Assembly: GCA_016214745.1 (NCBI GenBank)
Contig: JACRNW010000002.1
Span: 1 to 48,271 of the forward strand
Length of the DNA: 48,271 bases
DNA from: Candidatus Falkowbacteria bacterium
Lineage (GTDB): Bacteria > Patescibacteriota > Patescibacteriia > XYB2-FULL-38-15
Direction of reading: 5' to 3'
Each line of letters starts with the position of its first letter. Positions within the stretch are counted from its first letter, which is position 1. The notes under the pieces were generated by a model. The model saw only the letters and a program-made list of their open reading frames with translations, was not told where the DNA came from and made no database searches. The position numbers and the translations under genes are program-made. Below, piece by piece: positions 1 to 35,834 of the stretch.

Positions 1-805
1 CGCGCCGAAGGGAAAGGTCTTGGGAATTGATCTTGATCCGCGGGCGATTAAAATCGCGAAGTCAAGAATCGGAAATGCGGATAGGTTGGTCGCGGTGCAA
101 GGAAACTATAAAGACTTGAAAAATATTGTTCTTCAAAAAGATTTTAAAAATATTTCAGGCATCTTGATTGATCTCGGATTTTCTTCCATGGAAATCGCGG
201 ATCCTAAAAAAGGTTTTTCTTTTCAAATTGATGCGCCGCTCGATATGCGCTATGGCGAAGAAGGGGAGACGGCGGCGGATATTTTAAATCGAAGCAGGGA
301 ACAGGAGCTCGAAAGAATTTTCCGCGAATACGGCGAAGAGAAGTTTCCCGGAAGAATCGCCAGAAAAATTTGCGAAATTAGAAAAGATAATCCGATAGAC
401 ACGACTTTCAAATTAGTAGACGCGATTGCCGAAGTAGTTCCTAAAAAATTTCAGTTTGGCAGAGTCCATTTTGCCACAAAAGTTTTTCAGGCTCTTCGCA
501 TTGCCGTAAACCATGAACTTGAAAATTTAACCGAAGTTTTGCCGCAAGCGATTCGAATTCTTCCGCCGGGCGGACGGCTCGCGATAATTTCGTTTCATTC
601 TCTGGAAGACAGAATTGTTAAACAATATTTTAAAAAAGAATCAACCGATTGCGTTTGTCCAAAAAGCATTCCGGTCTGCAGCTGCGGCCACAAAGCGATT
701 TTAAAAATTTTAAATAAAAAACCAATAGTACCCAGTGAGGAGGAGGCAACCAATAATCCCAGGTCTCGGAGCGCGAAGCTTCGAGTCGCTGAGAAATTGA
801 AGTAA
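1..805 (+). CDS. rsmH: 16S rRNA m4C1402 methyltransferase (5'-truncated by window edge)
   Basis: Motifs DLGFSS, PLDMR, YGEE, FQALRIAVN, ISFHSLEDRIVK, NPRSRSAKLR. Confidence 0.97.
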   Translation, partial: APKGKVLGIDLDPRAIKIAKSRIGNADRLVAVQGNYKDLKNIVLQKDFKNISGILIDLGFSSMEIADPKKGFSFQIDAPLDMRYGEEGETAADILNRSREQELERIFREYGEEKFPGRIARKICEIRKDNPIDTTFKLVDAIAEVVPKKFQFGRVHFATKVFQALRIAVNHELENLTEVLPQAIRILPPGGRLAIISFHSLEDRIVKQYFKKESTDCVCPKSIPVCSCGHKAILKILNKKPIVPSEEEATNNPRSRSAKLRVAEKLK

Positions 806-3217: not shown

Positions 3218-4378
<1,161 letters not shown>

Positions 4379-9573: not shown

Positions 9574-10011
9574 ATGAAGGCGTACTTTTTCGTGATGGTG
9601 GGGTGTCTGATTCTGGGCGTGCTCGTAATGTTCGCGTTCGTGTTGTTCGGTGATCAGCCGGTTTCCGACGTGGGCAAACCCGCGGTCGTGGACGAGCCGG
9701 CCGGGACGAAGAACATCCCGCAGCCGGAGGAAGTGGCCGAGTGCCACGCCGATTCGGACTGCGAGATCGGTCTGGAGTGCTTCCGTGGCCAGTGCAGCTA
9801 CCCGTGCAGGGGCGCCTTGATGTGCCCCGTGGGGATGGTCTGCTCGGCCACCAGGTACTGCGAGGGCCATCCGGCCTGTCCGGACTACGGCCCGGAGATC
9901 TGCGACGGCCTCGACAACGACTGTGACGGTGTGATCGACGAGGAGGTTTGTCCGGGTCCTGTCGAGAGGTTGTTCTTAAACCCTGCGTCCCCATTCTGGA
10001 TTGGGCCATAA
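9574..10011 (+). CDS. Membrane-anchored Cys-rich protein with a putative metal-binding repeat (EICDGLDNDCDGVIDE)
   Basis: N-terminal TM helix, CxxDxDC Cys modules, MopE-like repeat; purine-rich SD region; GC-rich codons. Confidence 0.85.
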   Translation: MKAYFFVMVGCLILGVLVMFAFVLFGDQPVSDVGKPAVVDEPAGTKNIPQPEEVAECHADSDCEIGLECFRGQCSYPCRGALMCPVGMVCSATRYCEGHPACPDYGPEICDGLDNDCDGVIDEEVCPGPVERLFLNPASPFWIGP

Positions 10012-10022
10012 ATGACAATCCA

Positions 10023-10290
10023 CCTTCCAAACGTCCTGGCTTCTAAAAGTATGCCAGGAAAGTTCAACCGTCAGGTTGAGCGCTTGCTAGAGTTTTGCGA
10101 AATCACGCAGCGATGCGTGGCAAGCAGCTTCAGCGAGTCAGGGAGCGGAACCCATCACAATGAGTTCCGCCCTTTTCCGAGACCGCCACCCAAAAAGGTG
10201 ACGGACTCAGAGAAGGAAGTTTCCCGGCCGCGAATTATCGCGTGTCCGGGGCAAAGTTCATTGACTTTCGCCGAAAGGCGGACAAAAGAA
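10023..10290 (+). ncRNA. Putative structured RNA element, copy 1 (unknown family)
   Basis: Multi-hairpin intergenic sequence repeated at 10884 and 12544 with compensatory changes. Confidence 0.7.
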
Positions 10291-10305
10291 GGAAGGGAGA
10301 CAGAG

Positions 10306-10881
10306 ATGAAGAAGGTAATGGCTCTGTTCGCGGTGTTCATGATCGGCTGCAACAACACGTTCATCGACCTGACTCCGTGCTACGACGTCTACGCAGAAGT
10401 TCTGCCGGAGCTTCCGATGTACGATGATCAGCTGCCTATCCTCGGACTCCGAATCACGAACGATACGTGCGATACGGTATACGTCAAGTACATACTCACC
10501 GAACTTCGGCGGTTGGATGACGACTCGGCATTTTCCATCTGCAGCGTGTTCGATTGCTCGACATTCAGAGCATACCAAGATGGAAGGCTGGCCGTGGAGA
10601 GTGCGCCGCCCGGTGGAGGCAGCTGTTTGCTTGAGATTCACGTCAACTGGACTGGAACGGGCGATGGTTTGCCGTTCGGCGAAATCTCATCCCGCGGTTC
10701 AGCCGAGTTCGTGTACACCGCGATGATCCGGCCAGATGCTCCCTCGGGTCGATACCAGTATATCCTCACGGGGTACTGGATCGATGAGTTCGAGGTCGTG
10801 ATGAGCTGTAACGTCGAGGATCAGCCCGTTCCGAGCAAGCTCGGCGTTCCGATTCTCGGACCGGTCATTACCGTTTTGTAG
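10306..10881 (+). CDS. Lipoprotein of unknown function
   Basis: MKKVMALFAVFMIGC lipobox; aaggaagggag SD; N-terminus shared with the next gene. Confidence 0.8.
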   Translation: MKKVMALFAVFMIGCNNTFIDLTPCYDVYAEVLPELPMYDDQLPILGLRITNDTCDTVYVKYILTELRRLDDDSAFSICSVFDCSTFRAYQDGRLAVESAPPGGGSCLLEIHVNWTGTGDGLPFGEISSRGSAEFVYTAMIRPDAPSGRYQYILTGYWIDEFEVVMSCNVEDQPVPSKLGVPILGPVITVL

Positions 10882-10883
10882 TT

Positions 10884-11135
10884 CCTTCCAAACGTCCTGG
10901 CAAATTCCAAATCAAGTATGCCAGGAAAGTTCAACCGCCAGGTTGAGCGCTCGCTAAAGTTTTGCGAAATCACGCAGCGATGCGTGGCAAGCAACTAAAG
11001 CGAGTTAGAGCGGAACCCATCACAATGAGTTCCGCCCTTTTCCGAGATCGCCACCCAAAAAGGTGACGGACTCAGAGAAGGAAGTTTCTCGGCCGCGATG
11101 TTTCGCGTGTCCGAGGCAAAGTTCTTTACAACAAG
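10884..11135 (+). ncRNA. Putative structured RNA element, copy 2
   Basis: Near-identical to copy 1; differences mostly lie in loops or preserve pairing. Confidence 0.7.
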
Positions 11136-11154
11136 GAAGGAAAGAGAGAAAAAG

Positions 11155-12531
11155 ATGAAGAATACGTTGATGGTTCTGTCCGTGGTTCTGTTCGCGGTCG
11201 GTTGCGACAACACGTTCATCGATTTGAGCAGCGAGTGCGAAACGAGCGCGGACTGCGCCGACGGCGACCCTTGCACGGTGGACATCTGCGACGTCGACAA
11301 CACCTGCGTCCAGATCCCGTCCGACAATCCGGCCTGCGATCCGGTGGACGACCGGGATGCCGACACCGATGCGGATGTCGGAGCCGAAACGGACGCCGAC
11401 GCCGACGCGGACGCTGATGCACACACCGACATCGTTCCCGACGACTACGAGGGCGACGAGCCCGGAGAGTGCGACGATCACGTGGACAACGACCGCGACG
11501 GTCTGTTCGACTGCGACGATCCCGGTTGCGCTCCGGGTCCGGCCTGTGAGACGCCTCCTGGCGCTGACGCCGATGCCGACGCTGATGCTGATGCGGACGC
11601 GGATGCAGACGCCGACGCAGATGTCGGAGTTGAAACGGACATCGACGCGGGCGCTGATGCGGATACCGATGCCGACGCAGACGCCGATGCTGGTTGCATG
11701 CCGACCGAAGAGCTCTGCGACGACCACACGGACAACGACTGTGACGGCGAAACGGACGAGTTGCCGGGGTGCGTATTTTGCCCCTCGGATTCCATGATCA
11801 CCTGCTACTATGATGCCGACCACGATGGCTACGGCGTTCCGGTACCGCCGATACGCGCATGCCCCTCTGCCTGTGTCGGCGACTGGACACCATTTTCAGG
11901 CGACTGCCGCTACTGGGATTCGGCTAGTTATCCCGGGGCAGAAGAAGTCTGCGATGGGCATGATAACGACTGCGACGCCGGAGTGGACGAAGGATGTTCC
12001 TGCTCTGACGGCGAAGTCGTTGTTTGCCACTGCGGCGAGGTGCTCGGAGAGTCCCATTGCGGCACCGATCATCTTTACGACGGGTCATGCGATTGTTCGG
12101 TCTGCGGGGACGGCGTCTGCTTCACGATCGGGGTATTCCAAGAGAATTGCCCGGCTGATTGCGGACTTCCCACCTGCGGAGACGGTGTCTGTGGCAGCGA
12201 TGAGACGTTGTTGACGTGCTCTCGCGATTGCGGCATGTGCAGGTTCAACTGGAATCTCGCCGGCTCGGCTGATCCGCCAGCGGCATGCGGTTCCTGGTGG
12301 TACATCTGGGACCGAGTACGTTGCGGCGGCTGGATTGGCCTATCGGCTGAGACTCCCACTACGGCGTGTCTCGATGCACTCCGGGCGCGGCTCGCTCTGC
12401 CTCCGGGCGTCGAGGGCCGCATCTACGGAGTCGATTCGGCCGGCCATACCTTGGCCGTCTCGATCGTCGATCCGGCATCGTCAGGCGGGCCGACGTGGCC
12501 GAGCCAACTCGGTTGGGCGTATTCCTTCTAG
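11155..12531 (+). CDS. Cys/Asp-rich lipoprotein with (DA)n linkers, DNDCDG repeats and CGDGVC repeats (myxobacterial style)
   Basis: Lipobox FAVGC; DADADA tracts; [26 protein letters not shown]; CGDGVC twice. Confidence 0.88.
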
Positions 12532-12543
12532 CCAAGAAGTTTG

Positions 12544-12761
12544 CCTCTGACAAATTCCCAAAAGGTTATGTCAGAGGAAATCGTCCGAGTCCTTCGGACG
12601 GTGGCTCGTAGATTTTCCTAAATCACCGCAAGGTGACAGCAAGAAAAAATACGAGCTTAGAGCGGAACCCATCACAATGAGTTCCGCCCTTTTTCGAGGA
12701 CATCACCCGCCCAAATTCGCTGACGCGAACTTCAGTCGGGTGGTGCACTCAAAGAAGGAGG
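12544..12761 (+). ncRNA. Putative structured RNA element, copy 3 (diverged)
   Basis: Identical 34-nt core at 12660-12693; flanking stems differ in sequence but keep the same pairing order. Confidence 0.65.
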
Positions 12762-12772
12762 CCAAGTAATAG

Positions 12773-12976
12773 ATGGAGGCGCTCGTGAAGATTGTAAGGG
12801 TTGTGATGGGGATTGTGGTGGCGGTAGCGTACCTTTACATCTTGCTCAGTTTCGTCAAGAAGTACGAGCGTCGCCGGCTAATGGTAGTCGGCGAAACGGG
12901 GGACGGCGGGGATCGCGTGTTCCCAATCATGTTGTTCGTCGCTTTCGTCGGGACCTTGTTGGTCCTTGGCGAATAG
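12773..12976 (+). CDS. Small two-TM membrane protein
   Basis: AAGGAGG SD; two hydrophobic segments. Confidence 0.7.
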   Translation: MEALVKIVRVVMGIVVAVAYLYILLSFVKKYERRRLMVVGETGDGGDRVFPIMLFVAFVGTLLVLGE

Positions 12977-12985
12977 GAGGTAGCG

Positions 12986-13300
12986 ATGTTTTCCGAAGTG
13001 ATGTTCTGGATCGGAATCGTGTGCTTCCCGGTGTTCCTCGTGGTGCGCTGGATGGAAGCGCTGAAGGCCGAGCGGTTTCCGGTGGGGAAGATTGTTGCGG
13101 TCACGCTGGCGTTCGTGCTTTGCTTGGCCGCGGCGCTTCTCTACAAGTTCTGCTTCGTTTCGCACGGCCTTTCGGGACCGTTCAAGCAACTCGGAGCGAT
13201 TCTCGTGATTATCGCCCTGGGTGTGACCGCGGTCATCGGCTTCGTGAAGACCGCGCCCGCCATTCCGTGCACGCCGCCGAGAGAAAGGAGGAGCGGTTGA
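12986..13300 (+). CDS. Small three-TM membrane protein
   Basis: AGGAGGT SD; three hydrophobic segments. Confidence 0.72.
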   Translation: MFSEVMFWIGIVCFPVFLVVRWMEALKAERFPVGKIVAVTLAFVLCLAAALLYKFCFVSHGLSGPFKQLGAILVIIALGVTAVIGFVKTAPAIPCTPPRERRSG

Positions 13301-13461
13301 TCAGGAAGGTTGCGTGGGATTTGGCCAGCGTGGCGATCATCGTTTTCACGGTGGGAGTCGTCGGCATCGCCGACCAGATCGCTCCGCACACGACGGTCCG
13401 ACTCATGCAGCGGTTCGAGCCGCAGCTGGATCGGTTCGTCACGTTCCTGCTCCGCGAGTAA
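13297..13461 (+). CDS. Small single-TM protein (TTG start, TTGA overlap)
   Basis: AAGGAGG SD; MIRKVAWDLASVAIIVFTVGVVGIA...; coupled to the upstream stop. Confidence 0.6.
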   Translation: MIRKVAWDLASVAIIVFTVGVVGIADQIAPHTTVRLMQRFEPQLDRFVTFLLRE

Positions 13462-13713
13462 CGGCAGCAGTCGTCACTCACGGATAGGTAACTCAAGGAG
13501 GGAAAAAGAAGGAGATGGCCGTGCGTACCAGCCACGCCGAGACGAATGAATGGCGACTTTGCGTGGTAGAAAAAGCTCTGTAGGCGAGCAAGTCATTCCG
13601 GGGAAAGTCCACCTCGATAGGGTCGTACCTAAACGGACTGGGGAGTGAATAAAGTAGCTCCCCACATTTTTCGAGAGCATCATAGTAAATGGTGTTTTCA
13701 AAAGATGTTTTAA

Positions 13714-13810
13714 ATCCTGGAGCGAGTGAGTAAACCTCGTTCAGCAAACAAATCTCTCTCTGTTTGTCTGGACATTCGAGGATTGCTCACTCACTCCAGG
13801 GTTTTTTATT
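13714..13810 (+). terminator. Very long imperfect hairpin plus T tract ending the island
   Basis: cctggagcgagtgagtaa ... ttgctcactcactccagg followed by gttttttatt. Confidence 0.65.
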
Positions 13811-13874
13811 TATCTTGCAGCCAGCAGAAAAACGCGCTATTATAAATGCAGGAAGAGAAATTAATTTTAAAAAT

Positions 13875-14315
13875 ATGGAACGTTTTTATTCAGTCATTTT
13901 TATCATAGTTTTGGCGGCGGCGGGATTTTTAAAAGTAGGTCAATACGCAGAGGAGCACGGTTCAGTAATTATTGATGATGTGAAAGTTAAAGTAGAAATT
14001 GCCGACGAGCCGACGGAAATGGCCAAGGGCTTGAGTAACCGCAAAAATTTAGACGAAAACCACGGTATGCTTTTTGTTTTTGCTACGCCTGGTCAGCCGG
14101 CTTTTTGGATGAAAGATATGAATTTTTCCATTGACATTATTTGGATAAAAAATGATGTAGTTGTTGATATTGCTCCAAATCTTCCGGTCGTAGCCGCGGA
14201 ATTTTTATCAACTTACACGCCAAAAGAACCGGCAAATTATGTTTTGGAAGTTAACGCCGGATTTGCGAAGGAGCATGGGATAAAAGTGGGGGATGGGGTA
14301 GATATTAAAATTTAA
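13875..14315 (+). CDS. DUF192 family protein
   Basis: VEIAD...KGLS.R...GMLFVF...FWMKDMNFSIDIIWI...YVLEVNAG. Confidence 0.92.
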   Translation: MERFYSVIFIIVLAAAGFLKVGQYAEEHGSVIIDDVKVKVEIADEPTEMAKGLSNRKNLDENHGMLFVFATPGQPAFWMKDMNFSIDIIWIKNDVVVDIAPNLPVVAAEFLSTYTPKEPANYVLEVNAGFAKEHGIKVGDGVDIKI

Positions 14316-22528: not shown

Positions 22529-24097
22529 TTAGAAATTTTTTACCATGTATGTTCCGTCGGGATGATAGCCGATTTTTTTATAATATTCCCGGACGCCGAC
22601 ACCGGAAATAACAGCCACTTTTTTGACGCCGGATTTTCGCGCAATTTTTTCCGCCTCGGCCATTAATTTTTTTCCAAGACCAAGATGCTGTGTCGCGTCG
22701 GGAGATTTTTGATCAATTGGCACGAGATGTCCATAAGTATGAAGTTCGCGAATCAGGGCTGCGTCTTCTAATTCCGGCAAGATAGTTGGCGTTTTAAAAT
22801 TAGGAATTCTCAAACGAACAAAAGCGTAGAGGATTTTTTTGTCCGGTGATTCAAAACTGATAAAATATTCCATGCCGCCGGACGCGGCGTATTTTTTTGT
22901 AAATAATTTTGGGACAGCATTTCTGATTTTTTTTTGATGCCCGACCTCGCGGCATCTGATACATTTACATTGTAGACCCCGTCGCGTCATTTCGGCGGTA
23001 ATGACTTCCCGCAGATTGGAAACTTTATTTCCCGCCGCAATACTCGGGCTCGGAATGTCGCGGATCAGACGATTGACGCGGACGTAAGGCGGAATTATTT
23101 TTTTAATATTGATGAGTAATGCTACGAGTTGTTTTTCCGAATACGGTTTGTATTTTCCTTGTTTCCACCATTTGTAAATTTCCGAACCGTGCGTCACGAC
23201 ACAAGGATAAATTTTAATCATATCCGGCTGGAAGTTGGGATTCCTAAATACTTCGCGGAACATCTTTAAATCCTTGGCCGGAGTGGAGCCGGGGAGGTTT
23301 GGCATCAAGTGGTAGCAAATTTTAAATCCAGCGTTTTTTAAAAGTTTTGTGGCACGGATGGTTTCGGAAATATTGTGTCCGCGGCGGTTTCGCTGTAAGA
23401 TAGAATTGTAAATACTTTGCACGCCGAGCTCCACTCTTGTGGCACCGAGTTCTCGCATTTGTTTAATTTCTTCGGGCGTAATATAATCTGGCCGAGTTTC
23501 AAGAGTGATGCCAATAATTCTGTGCTTGGCGGTTTCATTTGTTTTTTGCGCTGCAGCCAAGTTTTTACTTTTTCTGCCGTTCGCACCGTCAAAACATCTT
23601 TGGATAAACCATTTTTGATATTTGTCCGGAAGAGCCGACCAAGTTCCACCGATCACAATCAGTTCCAGCTTGTCGGTTGGATGGCCGTTCATTTCCAAAA
23701 CTTTAATTCTTCCGACGACTTGTTTTTGGGGATCAAAATGAAAAGCTACGGCCCGCATCACGGCCGGTTCGTTGGACAAATAACTTTTTGGCATATTTTT
23801 TTCCGTCGGACAATAAGCGCAGCGTCCCGGGCAAGGATAGAATTTTGTTAAAACGGCAATTGGCGCCACGCCGGAAATTGTCCGCACTTCGCGTTTTTTG
23901 AGGAGCGCCTCCAACCGTTCATCGCGTTTGATTTTTTTCTGCCGCAAGAGTTTTTTATAAATTTTAAAAATATCGGCGGAGAGGGGCGAGGCCATTTTAA
24001 ACTCGCCGGCGGTCTGGCGTTTAATCTGCGCCAAATCAGTGCGGCTTTGGGGCCGGGATTTGATAATTTTTCTGGAGATGGTTTCTAAAGTATTCAT
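22529..24097 (-). CDS. elp3: Elp3-family radical SAM / GNAT tRNA uridine(34) carboxymethyltransferase
   Basis: VRTISGVAPIAV, CPGRCAYCP, GGTW, ETRPD, RVELGVQS, KIYPC, CKCIRCREV, RELHTYG, QHLGLG, SGVGVREYY. Confidence 0.95.
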   Translation of the reverse strand: MNTLETISRKIIKSRPQSRTDLAQIKRQTAGEFKMASPLSADIFKIYKKLLRQKKIKRDERLEALLKKREVRTISGVAPIAVLTKFYPCPGRCAYCPTEKNMPKSYLSNEPAVMRAVAFHFDPQKQVVGRIKVLEMNGHPTDKLELIVIGGTWSALPDKYQKWFIQRCFDGANGRKSKNLAAAQKTNETAKHRIIGITLETRPDYITPEEIKQMRELGATRVELGVQSIYNSILQRNRRGHNISETIRATKLLKNAGFKICYHLMPNLPGSTPAKDLKMFREVFRNPNFQPDMIKIYPCVVTHGSEIYKWWKQGKYKPYSEKQLVALLINIKKIIPPYVRVNRLIRDIPSPSIAAGNKVSNLREVITAEMTRRGLQCKCIRCREVGHQKKIRNAVPKLFTKKYAASGGMEYFISFESPDKKILYAFVRLRIPNFKTPTILPELEDAALIRELHTYGHLVPIDQKSPDATQHLGLGKKLMAEAEKIARKSGVKKVAVISGVGVREYYKKIGYHPDGTYMVKNF

Positions 24098-24100
24098 TTT

Positions 24101-24832
24101 ATGAAAGATGAAGTCGCGAAAAAAATATTGGATAAAATTAAGGCCGATTACGCGGTAATCGCGCCCCAGTTTTCGGCAAAAAGACAAAAATTTTGGAATG
24201 AGATGCGCGATTTTGCCGAAAGTTTGGGGCCGGGCGACCGCGTGCTTGATTTGGGATGCGGCAACGGAAGATTGTACGAGGTTTTGAAAGAAAAGTCAAT
24301 TGACTACACGGGCGTTGATAATTCGCCGGAACTTTTGGATTTTGCCAAAAAGAGGTGGGGCAAAAATGAATCTCGGCGATTTTTGCTGGGCGACGCGACG
24401 AATTTGGATTGGTGGAAAGGGGAGAAATACAGTGTGGTTTTTTTGATTGCCACCCTGCATCACATTCCGTCGGAAAATTTGCGGAAAAAAGTTTTGGAAA
24501 ATGTCAGCCAGGTTCTTTCGCCAAACGGATTTTTGATTATGACCAACTGGGCGCTTTTCAGGAAAAAATATCTGATACTTGTCGTGAAAAATATAATTTT
24601 AAAATTATCCGGCCGGAGCGATTTGGATTTTGGCGACGCCGTGGTTCCCTGGAAGAGTTCCGAAACCGGCAAGGTTATGGCCGAGCGTTATGTTCATGCT
24701 TTTACTTTACGGGAATTGAAGCGTCTCGTCAAAGAATCGGGATTTGAAATTTTGGAAAATTTTTATTCCATTGACGACCGCAAAGCGCATTTTTGGAATG
24801 GGAAGAATATTGTCACAATCGCGAAAAAGTGA
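24101..24832 (+). CDS. Class I SAM methyltransferase, Trm9/ALKBH8-like
   Basis: Y..IAPQFS..R...W, LDLGCGNG, IATLHH, NWA, D..VPW, RYVH.F...EL. Confidence 0.85.
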   Translation: MKDEVAKKILDKIKADYAVIAPQFSAKRQKFWNEMRDFAESLGPGDRVLDLGCGNGRLYEVLKEKSIDYTGVDNSPELLDFAKKRWGKNESRRFLLGDATNLDWWKGEKYSVVFLIATLHHIPSENLRKKVLENVSQVLSPNGFLIMTNWALFRKKYLILVVKNIILKLSGRSDLDFGDAVVPWKSSETGKVMAERYVHAFTLRELKRLVKESGFEILENFYSIDDRKAHFWNGKNIVTIAKK

Positions 24833-26376: not shown

Positions 26377-26454
26377 TTCATAACGCCCCCGCCCGCCACG
26401 CAAGCCAGCCCCGCCTGCAACGCTATGCTTGCATTAGCGGGCAGGTTGCTGGCG
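26377..26454. repeat. 78-bp direct repeat, copy 1 (nested palindromes)
   Basis: Identical to 27905-27982. Confidence 0.9.
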
Positions 26455-27204
26455 CGTTTTGCCGCGGTGTGGTGAATCCTGGACGTAGGTCGGCAAACAA
26501 ATACCGGAAATTTTTTTGCGCAATTGGCGCATTATTTTTTTACCTTTTTTTATCGGAACCCAATATTTTTTTGTCCCGCGCGCCGGGTCGCATTGATGCA
26601 GATAATATGGTTTGATGGCAAGATCGACAAGACTATAAAACAATTTCTTTAGGGTGTCTACGTCGTCGTTTATGCCGCGGAGCAAAACCGATTGAGAGAG
26701 AAGGGGAATACCGGCTGTCGTGAAAATTGCGACAGCTTTTTTAAATTGTGGCGTAATTTCTTTTGGATGATTAATATGAATTATAATCCAAAGCGGCGTG
26801 GCGCGACGAAGTATGGCCGCCATTTTTTTTGTGATGCGCGATGGAAGTGTAACTGGAATCCGAGTGTGGACGCGCAGAAGTTTAATATGCGGAATGGCGG
26901 ACAGGCGTTTCAAAATGTCCGATAAAATTTTTGGAGGCAGGAAAAGTGGATCGCCGCCGGACAAAATCACCTCGCGGATGGTTTTGTCTTTTTTAATATA
27001 ATCAATCGCGGCAGCCATTTCATCTTTGCTAAGTTTGCCGTTTTTTCCGTTCACCATATTTTTTCTAAAACAAAAATCGCAGCGCGAAGGACAAGTGTAA
27101 GTCGGACAGAAAATCACCCGGTCGGAATATTTTTTGATAATTCCCCGAACTGGCGAATATTTTTTCTCGGCCAACGGATCATCAGATTCTATTTTATATT
27201 TCAT
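26434..27204 (-). CDS. KamA/EpmB-family radical SAM protein (short form)
   Basis: EDDPL-like start, KYSDRV, CPSRCDFCFRK, LSGGDPL, HINHP.E, QSVLLRGIND, PYYLHQCD. Confidence 0.9.
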   Translation of the reverse strand: MKYKIESDDPLAEKKYSPVRGIIKKYSDRVIFCPTYTCPSRCDFCFRKNMVNGKNGKLSKDEMAAAIDYIKKDKTIREVILSGGDPLFLPPKILSDILKRLSAIPHIKLLRVHTRIPVTLPSRITKKMAAILRRATPLWIIIHINHPKEITPQFKKAVAIFTTAGIPLLSQSVLLRGINDDVDTLKKLFYSLVDLAIKPYYLHQCDPARGTKKYWVPIKKGKKIMRQLRKKISGICLPTYVQDSPHRGKTRQQPAR

Positions 27205-33770: not shown

Positions 33771-35834
33771 ATGAACAAAATCAAAAGATTCCTCGCAAAC
33801 GCGGGAAAAAAGTTATTTACAACCGCCAGAGCTAAAGTTTGGTGGCTTATTATTTTAATTCTAGCCATTACGGTTTTGGCCGGATTTTTGGATTATCCAA
33901 AATATTATGACCAAGGAGTAAATTGGCTGAAAAAAACTACAGGCATTGCTTTGCCGGAATTTTATAAATTACCCTTCCGCCTCGGGTTAGATTTACAAGG
34001 CGGAACACATTTGATTTACGAAGCGGATACTTCGGCAATTCCGGAGAAAGATCGTAATGACGCGCTTGAAGGCGTGCGCGACGTAATTGAACGCCGAGTG
34101 AACGCGTTTGGCGTGGCCGAGCCGGTGGTGCAGACAACTAAGGCGGGCGATAGTTATAGAGTAATTGTGGAATTGGCCGGCGTTAAAGATGTGTCTCAGG
34201 CCATCAAAATGATTGGCGAGACGCCGCTTTTGGAATTTAAAGAACAAGCCGCCGCTCCGATTACGGAATTAACCGCCGAACAGAAAAAGGAAATGAATGA
34301 TTACAATGCCGCGGCAAAAAAGACGGCAAATGAAGTTTTGAAAAAAGCTCGAGCAAGGGGTGCGGATTTCGTCGCTTTAGCCAAAGAATATTCCGCCGAT
34401 GAAGCGACAAAGAATGTGGGCGGCGATTTGGGTTTTATTACAAAAAATGGCGCGTACGCGGATTTATATGATGACGCGGCAAAACTTAAGGTTGGCGGAG
34501 TAAGCGGCTTGATTGAAACCGACGCCGATATCAATATTATAAAATTAGTCGCCACAGAGGATTCAAAAGAAGTGAAGGCCAATCATTTATTGGTTTGTTG
34601 GCAGGGAGCGCAAAGTTGCACGGGCACTTTGACCAAAGAAGAAGCTAGGAAAAAAATTGATGAGTTGAAAGCCCAGGCGACAAAAGAAAATTTTGTTGAT
34701 TTAGTTAAAGAAAATTCCACCGAGCCGGGCGCGAGCGAATCAGGTGGCGATTTGGGATGGTTTGGTAAAGGAATGATGGTTAAACCTTTTGAGGACGCGA
34801 CTTTCGCCATGAAAGTCGGAGAAATTTCAGATGTGATTGAAACGCAATTTGGATATCATTTAATTTATAAAACAGATGAACGGGCGGTTAAAGAATACCG
34901 CGTTTCAAGAATTTTAATTGATAAAAAAACAAAAGAAGAAATTTTGCCGCCGGCTGAAGAATGGGCTTATACCGGACTCACTGGCAAACAGCTTACAAAA
35001 GCTCAGGTTCAGTTTGATCCGAATACTAATTCACCGGAAGTCGGTTTGGAATTTAATGATGAAGGAAAAAAATTATTTGGTGAAATTACCGAACGAAACG
35101 TCGGCAAGCCGGTCGCGATTTTTTTGGATGGCGAGGCGATTTCCGTCCCAAGGGTAAACGAGGCGATCAAGGAAGGCAAAGCGGTCATCAGCGGAAATTT
35201 CACAATTCCGGAAGCAAAACTTTTGGCGCAACGGCTGAACGCCGGCGCTCTTCCTGTGCCGATTAATTTAGTCAGTCAGGAAACAATTGGCGCGGCGCTT
35301 GGCCAAGAATCGGTGACTAAAAGTTTAATGGCCGGTTTAATCGGATTTTTAGCCGTAGTTGTCTTTATGATTTTGTATTATCGCTTGCCCGGTTTGCTTT
35401 CTGCTCTGGCTTTGGTTTTTTACGCCGTCTTAGTTCTCGCGCTTTTCAAATTAATTCCCGTGACACTGACCTTGGCTGGTATCGCCGGTTTTGTTTTGTC
35501 GGTCGGTATGGCGGTGGATGCAAATGTTTTGATTTTTGAAAGGTTAAAAGAAGAATTGCGCTGGGGAAAACCACTGGGTTCAGCGATTGACGAAGCGTTC
35601 AGACGAGCGTGGCCTTCAATCCGCGACGGAAATCTTACCACTTTAATTTCTTGTCTGGTTTTGTTCTGGTTTTCCACAAGTATGATTAAAGGTTTTGCTC
35701 TGACACTTTCCGTCGGTGTTATTTTGAGCATGCTTTCAGCTCTTTTTATCACGAAGTCATTTTTACGTCTCATTTCGCCGTGGTTTCAGAATAAGAGCAC
35801 CTGGCTTTTCGGCGTGAAAAGTAAAAATAAATAA
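33771..35834 (+). CDS. secD: Protein translocase SecD with two inserted parvulin (PpiC) PPIase domains
   Basis: LGLDLQGG, RRVNAFGVAEP, LNAGALP, GMAVDANVLIFER; inserts F..LAKEYS.D...GGDLGF and GGDLGWF...MVKPFEDA.F....GEIS..IETQFGYHLI. Confidence 0.95.
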   Translation: MNKIKRFLANAGKKLFTTARAKVWWLIILILAITVLAGFLDYPKYYDQGVNWLKKTTGIALPEFYKLPFRLGLDLQGGTHLIYEADTSAIPEKDRNDALEGVRDVIERRVNAFGVAEPVVQTTKAGDSYRVIVELAGVKDVSQAIKMIGETPLLEFKEQAAAPITELTAEQKKEMNDYNAAAKKTANEVLKKARARGADFVALAKEYSADEATKNVGGDLGFITKNGAYADLYDDAAKLKVGGVSGLIETDADINIIKLVATEDSKEVKANHLLVCWQGAQSCTGTLTKEEARKKIDELKAQATKENFVDLVKENSTEPGASESGGDLGWFGKGMMVKPFEDATFAMKVGEISDVIETQFGYHLIYKTDERAVKEYRVSRILIDKKTKEEILPPAEEWAYTGLTGKQLTKAQVQFDPNTNSPEVGLEFNDEGKKLFGEITERNVGKPVAIFLDGEAISVPRVNEAIKEGKAVISGNFTIPEAKLLAQRLNAGALPVPINLVSQETIGAALGQESVTKSLMAGLIGFLAVVVFMILYYRLPGLLSALALVFYAVLVLALFKLIPVTLTLAGIAGFVLSVGMAVDANVLIFERLKEELRWGKPLGSAIDEAFRRAWPSIRDGNLTTLISCLVLFWFSTSMIKGFALTLSVGVILSMLSALFITKSFLRLISPWFQNKSTWLFGVKSKNK

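Follow-up and report, generated by a model that had tools for sequence, protein, structure and literature searches.

The closest described counterparts of the gene pair discussed here are eukaryotic and archaeal. Yeast Trm9-Trm112 (5cm2 in the PDB) and human ALKBH8-TRMT112 contain a class I S-adenosylmethionine (SAM) methyltransferase which esterifies 5-carboxymethyluridine (cm5U) at the tRNA wobble position (U34). In archaea Elp3 stands alone, without Elp1, Elp2 and Elp4 to Elp6, and the genes for Elp3 and Trm9 are clustered: Such a cluster has been noted in Sulfolobus solfataricus, and Trm9 of Haloferax volcanii has Trm112 as its partner (PMC6144793). The methyl ester, 5-methoxycarbonylmethyluridine (mcm5U), has been reported in H. 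volcanii (PMC7663514). We describe here a pair of this kind, elp3 and a Trm9-like methyltransferase gene, in a bacterium. It lies at positions 22,529 to 24,832 of a stretch of 48,271 nucleotides (the window) from Candidatus Falkowbacteria bacterium, contig JACRNW010000002.1 (C1 in our numbering) of assembly GCA_016214745.1, a member of the Patescibacteria or candidate phyla radiation (CPR).

The window methyltransferase resembles Trm9 and ALKBH8 in belonging to class I, in having the same motif series and the residues connected with cm5U esterification, and in being paired in the genome with the enzyme which makes cm5U. It differs from them in being bacterial, in having neither AlkB or RRM domains nor a detectable Trm112, in a charged patch, and in a variable equivalent of Y243. 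The stand-alone Elp3 and the gene clustering are shared with archaea, but archaeal Trm9 is a validated partner of Trm112, which has not been found in the bacterial host of the window. Among bacteria, the Elp3 of Dehalococcoides mccartyi (DmcElp3, 5l7j) also stands alone and has the same radical-SAM, zinc and GNAT architecture; the window Elp3 differs in keeping a long basic N-terminus. No partner methyltransferase for the Dehalococcoides enzyme is described in the available text of PMC6367351 and PMC7663514. The MnmE/MnmG route of most bacteria, which leads to 5-carboxymethylaminomethyluridine (cmnm5U) and 5-aminomethyluridine (nm5U), is directed at the same atom (C5 of U34) and serves the same purpose in decoding, but its enzymes and chemistry are unrelated to the Elp3 pair, and it is not found in the host genome. 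CmoM, a class I methyltransferase, converts uridine 5-oxyacetic acid (cmo5U) into its methyl ester (mcmo5U) in Escherichia coli. As proposed for the window enzyme, it esterifies a U34 side-chain carboxyl; on the other hand, no chain of this name appears among the best 60 of 204 PDB profile matches, and CmoB was not found in the host genome.

Bacterial Elp3 has been described as rare (PMC6367351). A 2020 review by Elp3 structure specialists confines it to Dehalococcoides, where cm5U-type (xcm5U) derivatives had not been shown (PMC7663514), and a 2026 paper speaks of 'numerous bacteria' with Elp3 (PMC13315578). We have found no report of Elp3 or Trm9 in CPR in the literature searched, subscription-only papers and supplements lying outside the search; the available text of PMC10849945 mentions Elp3 and Patescibacteria without connecting them. 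The databases half-know the system, because annotation pipelines name the Elp3 family and the Joint Genome Institute (JGI) sometimes uses the name TRM9. Nevertheless, we have found no description in print of a pair formed by a bacterial Elp3 and a Trm9-like enzyme without an obligate Trm112 complex.

We propose that this pair would be a two-gene pathway of CPR, occupying the place which MnmE/MnmG have in most bacteria, a reading to which we give a probability of about 0.75. Elp3, to judge from its family, would use SAM, acetyl-CoA and a 4Fe-4S cluster to add a carboxymethyl group to C5 of U34, in some or all of the 12 U34 tRNAs of the host. The methyltransferase, with SAM from MetK, would esterify the cm5U34 carboxylate to mcm5U34, as its conserved catalytic residues and the gene linkage suggest, and would do so without the Trm112 activator which eukaryotic and archaeal Trm9 need. 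The predicted end product is mcm5U and not its 2-thiolated form (mcm5s2U), and the common start region would tie the expression of one gene to that of the other. In that case mcm5U, known in eukaryotes and reported in one archaeon, would be present in a large bacterial phylum, there would be a natural Trm9 working without Trm112, and genome-reduced bacteria would have solved wobble decoding with an archaeal-type kit of two genes. What we observe directly is the anatomy of the locus, the family of Elp3, the kinship and residues of the methyltransferase, the linkage of the genes and the genes which were not found.

The locus and its two proteins

The host genome (923 kb in 19 contigs, 95% complete) has the two genes head to head, with three bases separating the start codons and no intergenic region:

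22529..24097, minus strand: elp3, stand-alone radical-SAM and GNAT protein of 522 amino acids (TIGR01211, Pfam and PDB matches)
24101..24832, plus strand: Trm9-like class I SAM-dependent methyltransferase of 243 amino acids, proposed cm5U34 to mcm5U34 methyl-esterase (sequence kinship to Trm9, conserved residues)
24095..24103, no strand: back-to-back start codons, CAT-ttt-ATG on the plus strand (from the sequence)

The methyltransferase (METHYLTRANSFERASE, 24101..24832) matches only the generic Pfam models Methyltransf_11, Methyltransf_25 and Methyltransf_31, and all specific NCBIfam models stay below their cut-offs. The motif series of Trm9 and ALKBH8, which the earlier note on this DNA had recognized, is complete between residues 17 and 206: Y17..IA..FS..R28...W32, LDLGCGNG (49-56), IATLHH (116-121), NWA (149-151), DAVVPW (179-184) and RYVHAFTLREL (196-206). 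In a search of 177,635 distinct PDB sequences, the best match of the single sequence is Trm9 of Yarrowia lipolytica (5cm2_Z, E 1.5e-9, 40.9 bits; second match 37.0 bits). A profile made from 25 relatives, which matches 204 chains, also places 5cm2_Z first (E 5.9e-25, 91.0 bits; second 84.0 bits). Only the Trm9 alignment extends through the C-terminal half (profile positions 26-223, as compared to 22-153 for the second match). Identity to Trm9 is only about 24-27%.

Alanine mutants of yeast Trm9 are inactive or strongly impaired at R29, D72, H116, W145, W168, R241, Y243 and N271; Y18 has been proposed to contact the cm5U carboxylate, and H115A is nearly active (PMC4678810). We have mapped these residues with a chain numbering offset of 35, and determined their conservation in two alignments, of 25 (A1) and 32 (A3) sequences. 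The pairing of N271 is based on structural alignment ranges (model 30..243, chain 42..229).

Yeast Trm9, window protein, conservation in A1 and A3
Y18, Y17: 25/25, 31/32
R29, R28: 25/25, 32/32
D72, D50: all sequences in both sets
H116, H121: all sequences in both sets
W145, W150: all sequences in both sets
W168, W184: 23/25, 30/32
R241, R196: 25/25, 29/32
N271, N236: 25/25, 31/32
H115 (dispensable in yeast), H120: 25/25, 28/32

Eight of the nine residues connected with Trm9 activity are kept in the window protein, and they are invariant or nearly so in its family. The kinship to Trm9 claimed in the earlier note is thus supported both by the closest solved sequence, with single sequence and profile alike, and by the conservation of residues essential in yeast.

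The AlphaFold model of the methyltransferase (mean predicted local distance difference test score, pLDDT, 92.6) has the class I SAM-methyltransferase fold, with motif I as D-x-G-C-G-N-G, and its best structural matches are all class I (Z about 20-23). Fold comparison confirms a class I methyltransferase and does not single out Trm9. The crystal chain 5cm2_Z is without its N-terminal 38 residues.

The gene is present in a single copy in the host genome, with no paralogue. Its family is large: Of 1,088 candidates which share words with it, 430 proteins reach E <= 1e-5, and a cut at E <= 1e-30 brings in at least 2,119 clusters (50% identity), one representative counted for each. Source annotations of the relatives are mostly generic or UbiE-like, JGI using 'TRM9' for five of the 120 clusters listed. 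The protein atlas gives generic names only, and its nearest clusters are from CPR and Chloroflexota; the relatives obtained in the other protein searches are all of CPR type. No fusion to Elp3 or AlkB was found among longer proteins (E <= 1e-10, 7,998 best word-sharing candidates), which is weak evidence; four of the five matches in this search are fused to a WecG-type glycosyltransferase domain. The prediction of a complex between Elp3 and the methyltransferase (score 0.00, mark 0.32) gives no evidence in either direction.

Elp3 reaches 619.9 bits with TIGR01211 (cut-off 350), from position 4 to 521 of the 522 in the model, so the match covers the whole protein. Its Pfam domains are Radical_SAM, Radical_SAM_C and GNAT. 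The closest solved Elp3 is that of Methanocaldococcus infernus (6iaz, E 4.8e-149, 500 bits), followed by DmcElp3 (E 1.2e-130, 440 bits) and the eukaryotic proteins (about 370-403 bits); PDB Elp3 chains fall between E 4.8e-149 and 1.4e-109. The radical-SAM triad (C89-x3-C93-x2-C96), the linker zinc cysteines of bacterial and archaeal type (C377/C379 and C382; the motif is described in PMC6367351) and the GNAT acetyl-CoA motif (Q470-H471-x-G473-x-G475) are all present. They are invariant, C382 nearly so, in 32 CPR Elp3 proteins, which are 46-85% identical to that of the window. The N-terminus is basic, with 18 K/R among the first 67 residues, and alignments start at residue 3 with eukaryotic Elp3 and at residue 68 with DmcElp3; for these reasons we consider that the window Elp3 retains the basic N-terminal tRNA-binding extension. 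DmcElp3 is without this extension (PMC6367351, PMC7663514), and its short N-terminus has been linked to weak tRNA binding (PMC7663514).

We should also note that in several CPR elp3 genes the match to the model is broken into two parts, both inside a single open frame, which suggests in-frame insertions of about 90-480 nucleotides (G185:C2:233626-235299, G217:C9:26232-27869, G147:C4:30578-32665, G035:C34, G060:C9, G275:C27 and G199:C1:791909-793522).

The open reading frames of the locus are 22529..24187 (minus strand), which has 552 amino acids when read from a TTG, and 24101..24832 (plus strand), with 243. The TIGR01211 alignment starts at residue 39 of the former. Since this start and the N-termini of the relatives fit the ATG at 24097, elp3 is best read from there, and the TTG at 24187 is probably unused. 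The head-to-head arrangement of a radical-SAM and GNAT Elp3 with a methyltransferase, as first seen in the earlier note, is borne out by the reading frames, the TIGR01211 score and the CAT-ttt-ATG junction. There is no intergenic room, so each promoter lies inside the opposite gene, or the mRNAs are leaderless. The best promoter-like site for elp3, at 24299-24271 within the methyltransferase gene, is a consensus match only (10 of 12 positions). Six groundwater-metagenome DNA runs, from two studies, contain part of the window stretch; no RNA run is listed.

Start-codon spacing in 40 related full-length pairs, with starts assigned heuristically, is as follows: CATG overlap in 11 pairs, 0-10 nucleotides in 11, 11-50 in 8, 51-200 in 6 and larger in 4. 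Palindromic CATG or short-spacing start regions are found at L013, L015, L018, L029, L035, L039, L046, L047, L053, L060 and L031.

Distribution of the pair and of other wobble-uridine enzymes

We have searched 301 Patescibacteria/CPR genomes, drawn evenly, of mixed completeness and including that of the window. Elp3 was counted above the TIGR01211 cut-off, and the methyltransferase when a full-length profile match reached at least 100 bits. Elp3 is found in 118 genomes, mostly with a dedicated Trm9-like partner, as compared to the single bacterial clade of the 2020 review (PMC7663514). The methyltransferase is found in 94. Of the 301 genomes, 90 have both, 28 have Elp3 alone and 4 the methyltransferase alone; the other 179 have neither. 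One of the four methyltransferase-only genomes carries a fragment of Elp3 where a contig ends; the others are 98%, 78% and 76% complete. The methyltransferase gene is at most 1.6 kb from elp3 on the same contig in 74 of the 94 genomes (within 300 bp in 65), and all 74 pairs are divergent. The remaining genes are on the same contig at 2.8-446 kb (4), on other contigs (13) or in genomes without Elp3 (3). The co-occurrence and synteny across CPR expected in the earlier note are therefore found. Two Elp3 genomes, G095 and G116, have a weaker-scoring divergent neighbour which keeps Y17, R28, H121, W150, R196 and N236. As an internal control, of the 39 matches below 100 bits, which cover the generic core only, 23 come from genomes with no Elp3.

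Because the sampled genomes are relatives, the counts do not stand for independent events; even so, the pairing involves many families of the phylum. In a second collection, Elp3 is found in 59 of the best 80 methyltransferase loci: 57 are divergent within 877 bp, one is divergent at 2.9 kb and one is in tandem. Four of the 21 loci without Elp3 have less than 1 kb of upstream DNA. These loci come from many CPR groups, among them Falkow-, Buchanan-, Kuenen-, Uhr-, Magasanik-, Kerfeld-, Komeili-, Portnoy- and Gracilibacteria, Peregrini- and Peribacteria, and Paceibacterota. No conserved third gene is found at the locus. The pairing of elp3 and the methyltransferase is far beyond chance.

The host genome gives no match for MnmG, MnmA, CmoB or a PF01171 PP-loop protein (TilS, TtcA or Ncs6 type). 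The MnmE model finds GTPase domains only, with 97 and 91 bits, far from the cut-off of 252.6; two of them are in one frame of 457 amino acids, which would be a Der-type GTPase. MetK is present. Of the 45 tRNAs found by ARAGORN, 12 have U34. Among these are Lys-UUU, Glu-UUC, Gln-UUG, Arg-UCU and Gly-UCC, each alongside a C34 isoacceptor. In the phylum, MnmG is found in 11 of the 301 genomes, and none of the 11 has Elp3 or the methyltransferase. In control panels, Elp3 is above the cut-off in all four archaeal and none of the ten bacterial model genomes.

The host also has a tRNA-Ile UAU (genome G000, C9:51733-51808); its CAU tRNAs number just two, and it gives no match for a PP-loop protein of TilS type. 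In 176 of the 301 genomes there is no PF01171, a tally which takes in one genome flagged as unpublished (G154). An association between Elp3 and the loss of this protein was considered and discarded: Both are present in 53 genomes, Elp3 only in 65, the PP-loop protein only in 72 and neither in 111. Another wobble-base pathway is kept in the window, where a gene for queuine tRNA-ribosyltransferase (Tgt) is found at 3251-4378 (plus strand). In two CPR genomes a radical-SAM gene lies beside mnmG: G096:C207:394-978 (mnmG at C207:1847-2941) and G118:C50:8670-9395 (mnmG at C50:5591-7696). These genes match the core of the Elp3 model only, with 63-66 bits; our guess is that they may be MnmL/YtqA-type partners.

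Trm112 and alternative readings

The search for Trm112 used PF03966, a model of 40 positions, in six frames; a model of this size could miss a small divergent partner. No match was obtained in the host genome among 11 candidates scored. In the phylum, matches to Trm112 (INDEPENDENCE) are found in 19 of the 301 genomes (12 above the cut-off), every one within an open frame of 201-758 amino acids, and in the frames inspected a Trm112-like or zinc-ribbon domain is joined to a methyltransferase of another kind. PF03966 is found in six of the 94 methyltransferase genomes and not found in 88. The possible independence from Trm112 suggested in the earlier note agrees with these counts. Neither these searches nor the contact patch described below indicate an obligate complex with Trm112, and for this reason we call the enzyme Trm9-like and not a canonical Trm9-Trm112.

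The protein surface points in the same direction. Trm112 buries six hydrophobic residues of Trm9 (V59, F78, V102, A110, P112 and F116), and the double mutation N89K+L91R disrupts the yeast complex (PMC4678810). The equivalents of this patch are mostly charged or polar in the 25 relatives: V59 is replaced by K/R in 21 and F78 by D/N/E in 23. The position of E100, equivalent to yeast N89, has K/R in 19 of 25. We infer that such replacements fit a surface exposed to solvent.

The best surviving alternative maintains the same pathway, with a methyltransferase which does need an activator: a zinc-ribbon or other protein beyond the Trm112 model, or a domain carried by another protein. The short model leaves room for such a partner, Trm112-like domains are fused to other methyltransferases in the 19 genomes just mentioned, and eukaryotic Trm9 is insoluble without Trm112 (PMC4678810), which is also why a Trm112-free Trm9 would be useful for enzymology. 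We consider an activator unlikely, in view of the empty search in the host and in 88 of 94 methyltransferase genomes, of a contact patch which is charged throughout the family, and of a locus without a conserved third gene.

Some of the fused proteins are found at L098:241-1167 (plus strand), L099:954-1880 (minus), L100:919-1980 (plus) and L101:925-1848 (plus). The Trm112-like or zinc-ribbon domain is C-terminal in two of them and N-terminal in the other two; they are away from elp3 and Trm9-like only in the generic core. A Trm112-like zinc-ribbon methyltransferase of an Elp3-only family (f27) was considered as a stand-in for Trm9 and rejected: Its profile match covers only columns 43-147, the generic core, its best PDB match is PH0226, and its gene is far from elp3.

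A second alternative, which we regard as quite improbable, is that the methyltransferase has a different target, be it a protein, a small molecule or some other position in RNA, the link with elp3 reflecting shared regulation only. The Pfam and NCBIfam matches to class I in general would fit this, as would METTL6 and many small-molecule methyltransferases with a Z equal to or higher than that of Trm9, and the UbiE-like or generic names of most relatives. It does not explain why there is little or no variation at the residues which, in Trm9, have been proposed to bind the uracil ring and the carboxylate of cm5U, nor why the family is almost confined to Elp3 genomes (90-91 of 94), beside elp3; the JGI name TRM9 for some relatives also disagrees with it. 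As CmoB was not found in the host, cmo5U is an unlikely alternative substrate.

Several results weigh against the proposed mcm5U pathway itself. Trm9 leads the PDB profile search by a small margin (91.0 against 84.0 bits), since most of the score comes from the Rossmann core which these proteins share. Structural searches do not place Trm9 first: 5cm2_Z is second in Foldseek (E 1.1e-15, template modelling score 0.81 on target) and 39th in VIA-align (Z 19.9, root-mean-square deviation 3.4, 176 residues aligned; METTL6 has Z 23.4). At the equivalent of Y243 the window protein has V198, and Y stands there in just 12/25 and 13/32 relatives. No methyltransferase reaches the 100-bit threshold in 28 of the 118 Elp3 genomes, and three genomes, one of them 98% complete, have the methyltransferase without any Elp3. 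As for Trm112, besides the size of PF03966, the interface residues were mapped from a pairwise sequence alignment. Finally, both Elp3 and MnmG are missing from 172 of the 301 genomes, and thus the phylum can manage without either. The replacement of MnmE/MnmG proposed in the earlier note is consistent with the genes not found in the host and with the mutual exclusion of mnmG and elp3 (0/11), but it is only part of the picture.

It is hardly credible that we have here an archaeal cassette, recently transferred or in decay, which has no function today: Elp3 is indeed closer to the archaeal protein (500 bits) than to that of Dehalococcoides (440 bits), but the two frames are unbroken, relatives at 34-60% identity show no variation in the catalytic motifs, and the pair is spread across many families of the phylum, with the abundance of clusters given above.

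A second gene beside elp3, and the rest of the window

We have inspected 14 Elp3 loci in genomes where no methyltransferase match reaches the threshold. Some of them have beside elp3 a protein of 263-283 amino acids which matches only the synthetase half (PP-loop, SGGVDSS) of asparagine synthetase. In G185 it lies directly upstream of elp3, on the same strand. G264 and G235 have it in divergent orientation, at 32 and 97 bp, respectively; in G013 it is also divergent, but separated from elp3 by one gene, and the copy of G133, divergent as well, is partial and at a contig end. In most cases, then, it is divergent and in the slot usually held by the methyltransferase. AsnB-like proteins are found at the following positions, and also at L107 and L108:

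L094:2222-3013, plus strand: AsnB-like protein
L104:3719-4534, plus strand: AsnB-like protein
L105:1106-1921, minus strand: AsnB-like protein
L089:1554-2405, minus strand: AsnB-like protein

In a metagenome scan, Elp3 is present in only two of 80 AsnB-like loci, those of the two closest relatives, so the link with elp3 is confined to a few lineages. Asparagine synthetases activate a carboxylate and then amidate it, the same chemistry that is needed to convert cm5U into 5-carbamoylmethyluridine (ncm5U). By this analogy, the AsnB-like protein can be put forward as a candidate for the cm5U-to-ncm5U amidoligase. The available text of the review PMC10275265 assigns no enzyme to this conversion. A broader reading, which is tentative and which we consider doubtful, is that the phylum took over the archaeal and eukaryotic Elp3 route to xcm5U34 and swapped the tailoring enzyme at a fixed divergent slot: mostly a Trm112-independent methyl-esterase (mcm5U), in a few lineages an AsnB-like amidoligase (ncm5U). 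If this were true, it would mean the first mcm5U in bacteria and the first candidate for a cm5U amidating enzyme.

The pair is flanked by housekeeping genes. On one side are folD, glyA and a GIY-YIG gene; on the other are murC, a short radical-SAM gene of the KamA-like kind, and murB:

26434-27204, minus strand: KamA/EpmB-like radical-SAM protein of 256 amino acids, without the first 65-90 positions, approximately, of lysine-2,3-aminomutase-type models

No RNA family reaches its gathering score anywhere in the window. The region 10000-14000 has 55-58% G+C, as compared to about 38-48% elsewhere in the window. Its open reading frames have no family match, except one of 477 amino acids (11098-12531), which matches only Ser-Asp-repeat regions of adhesins. 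The SecD encoded at 33771-35834 (plus strand) carries a fused prolyl isomerase domain of the PPIC type.

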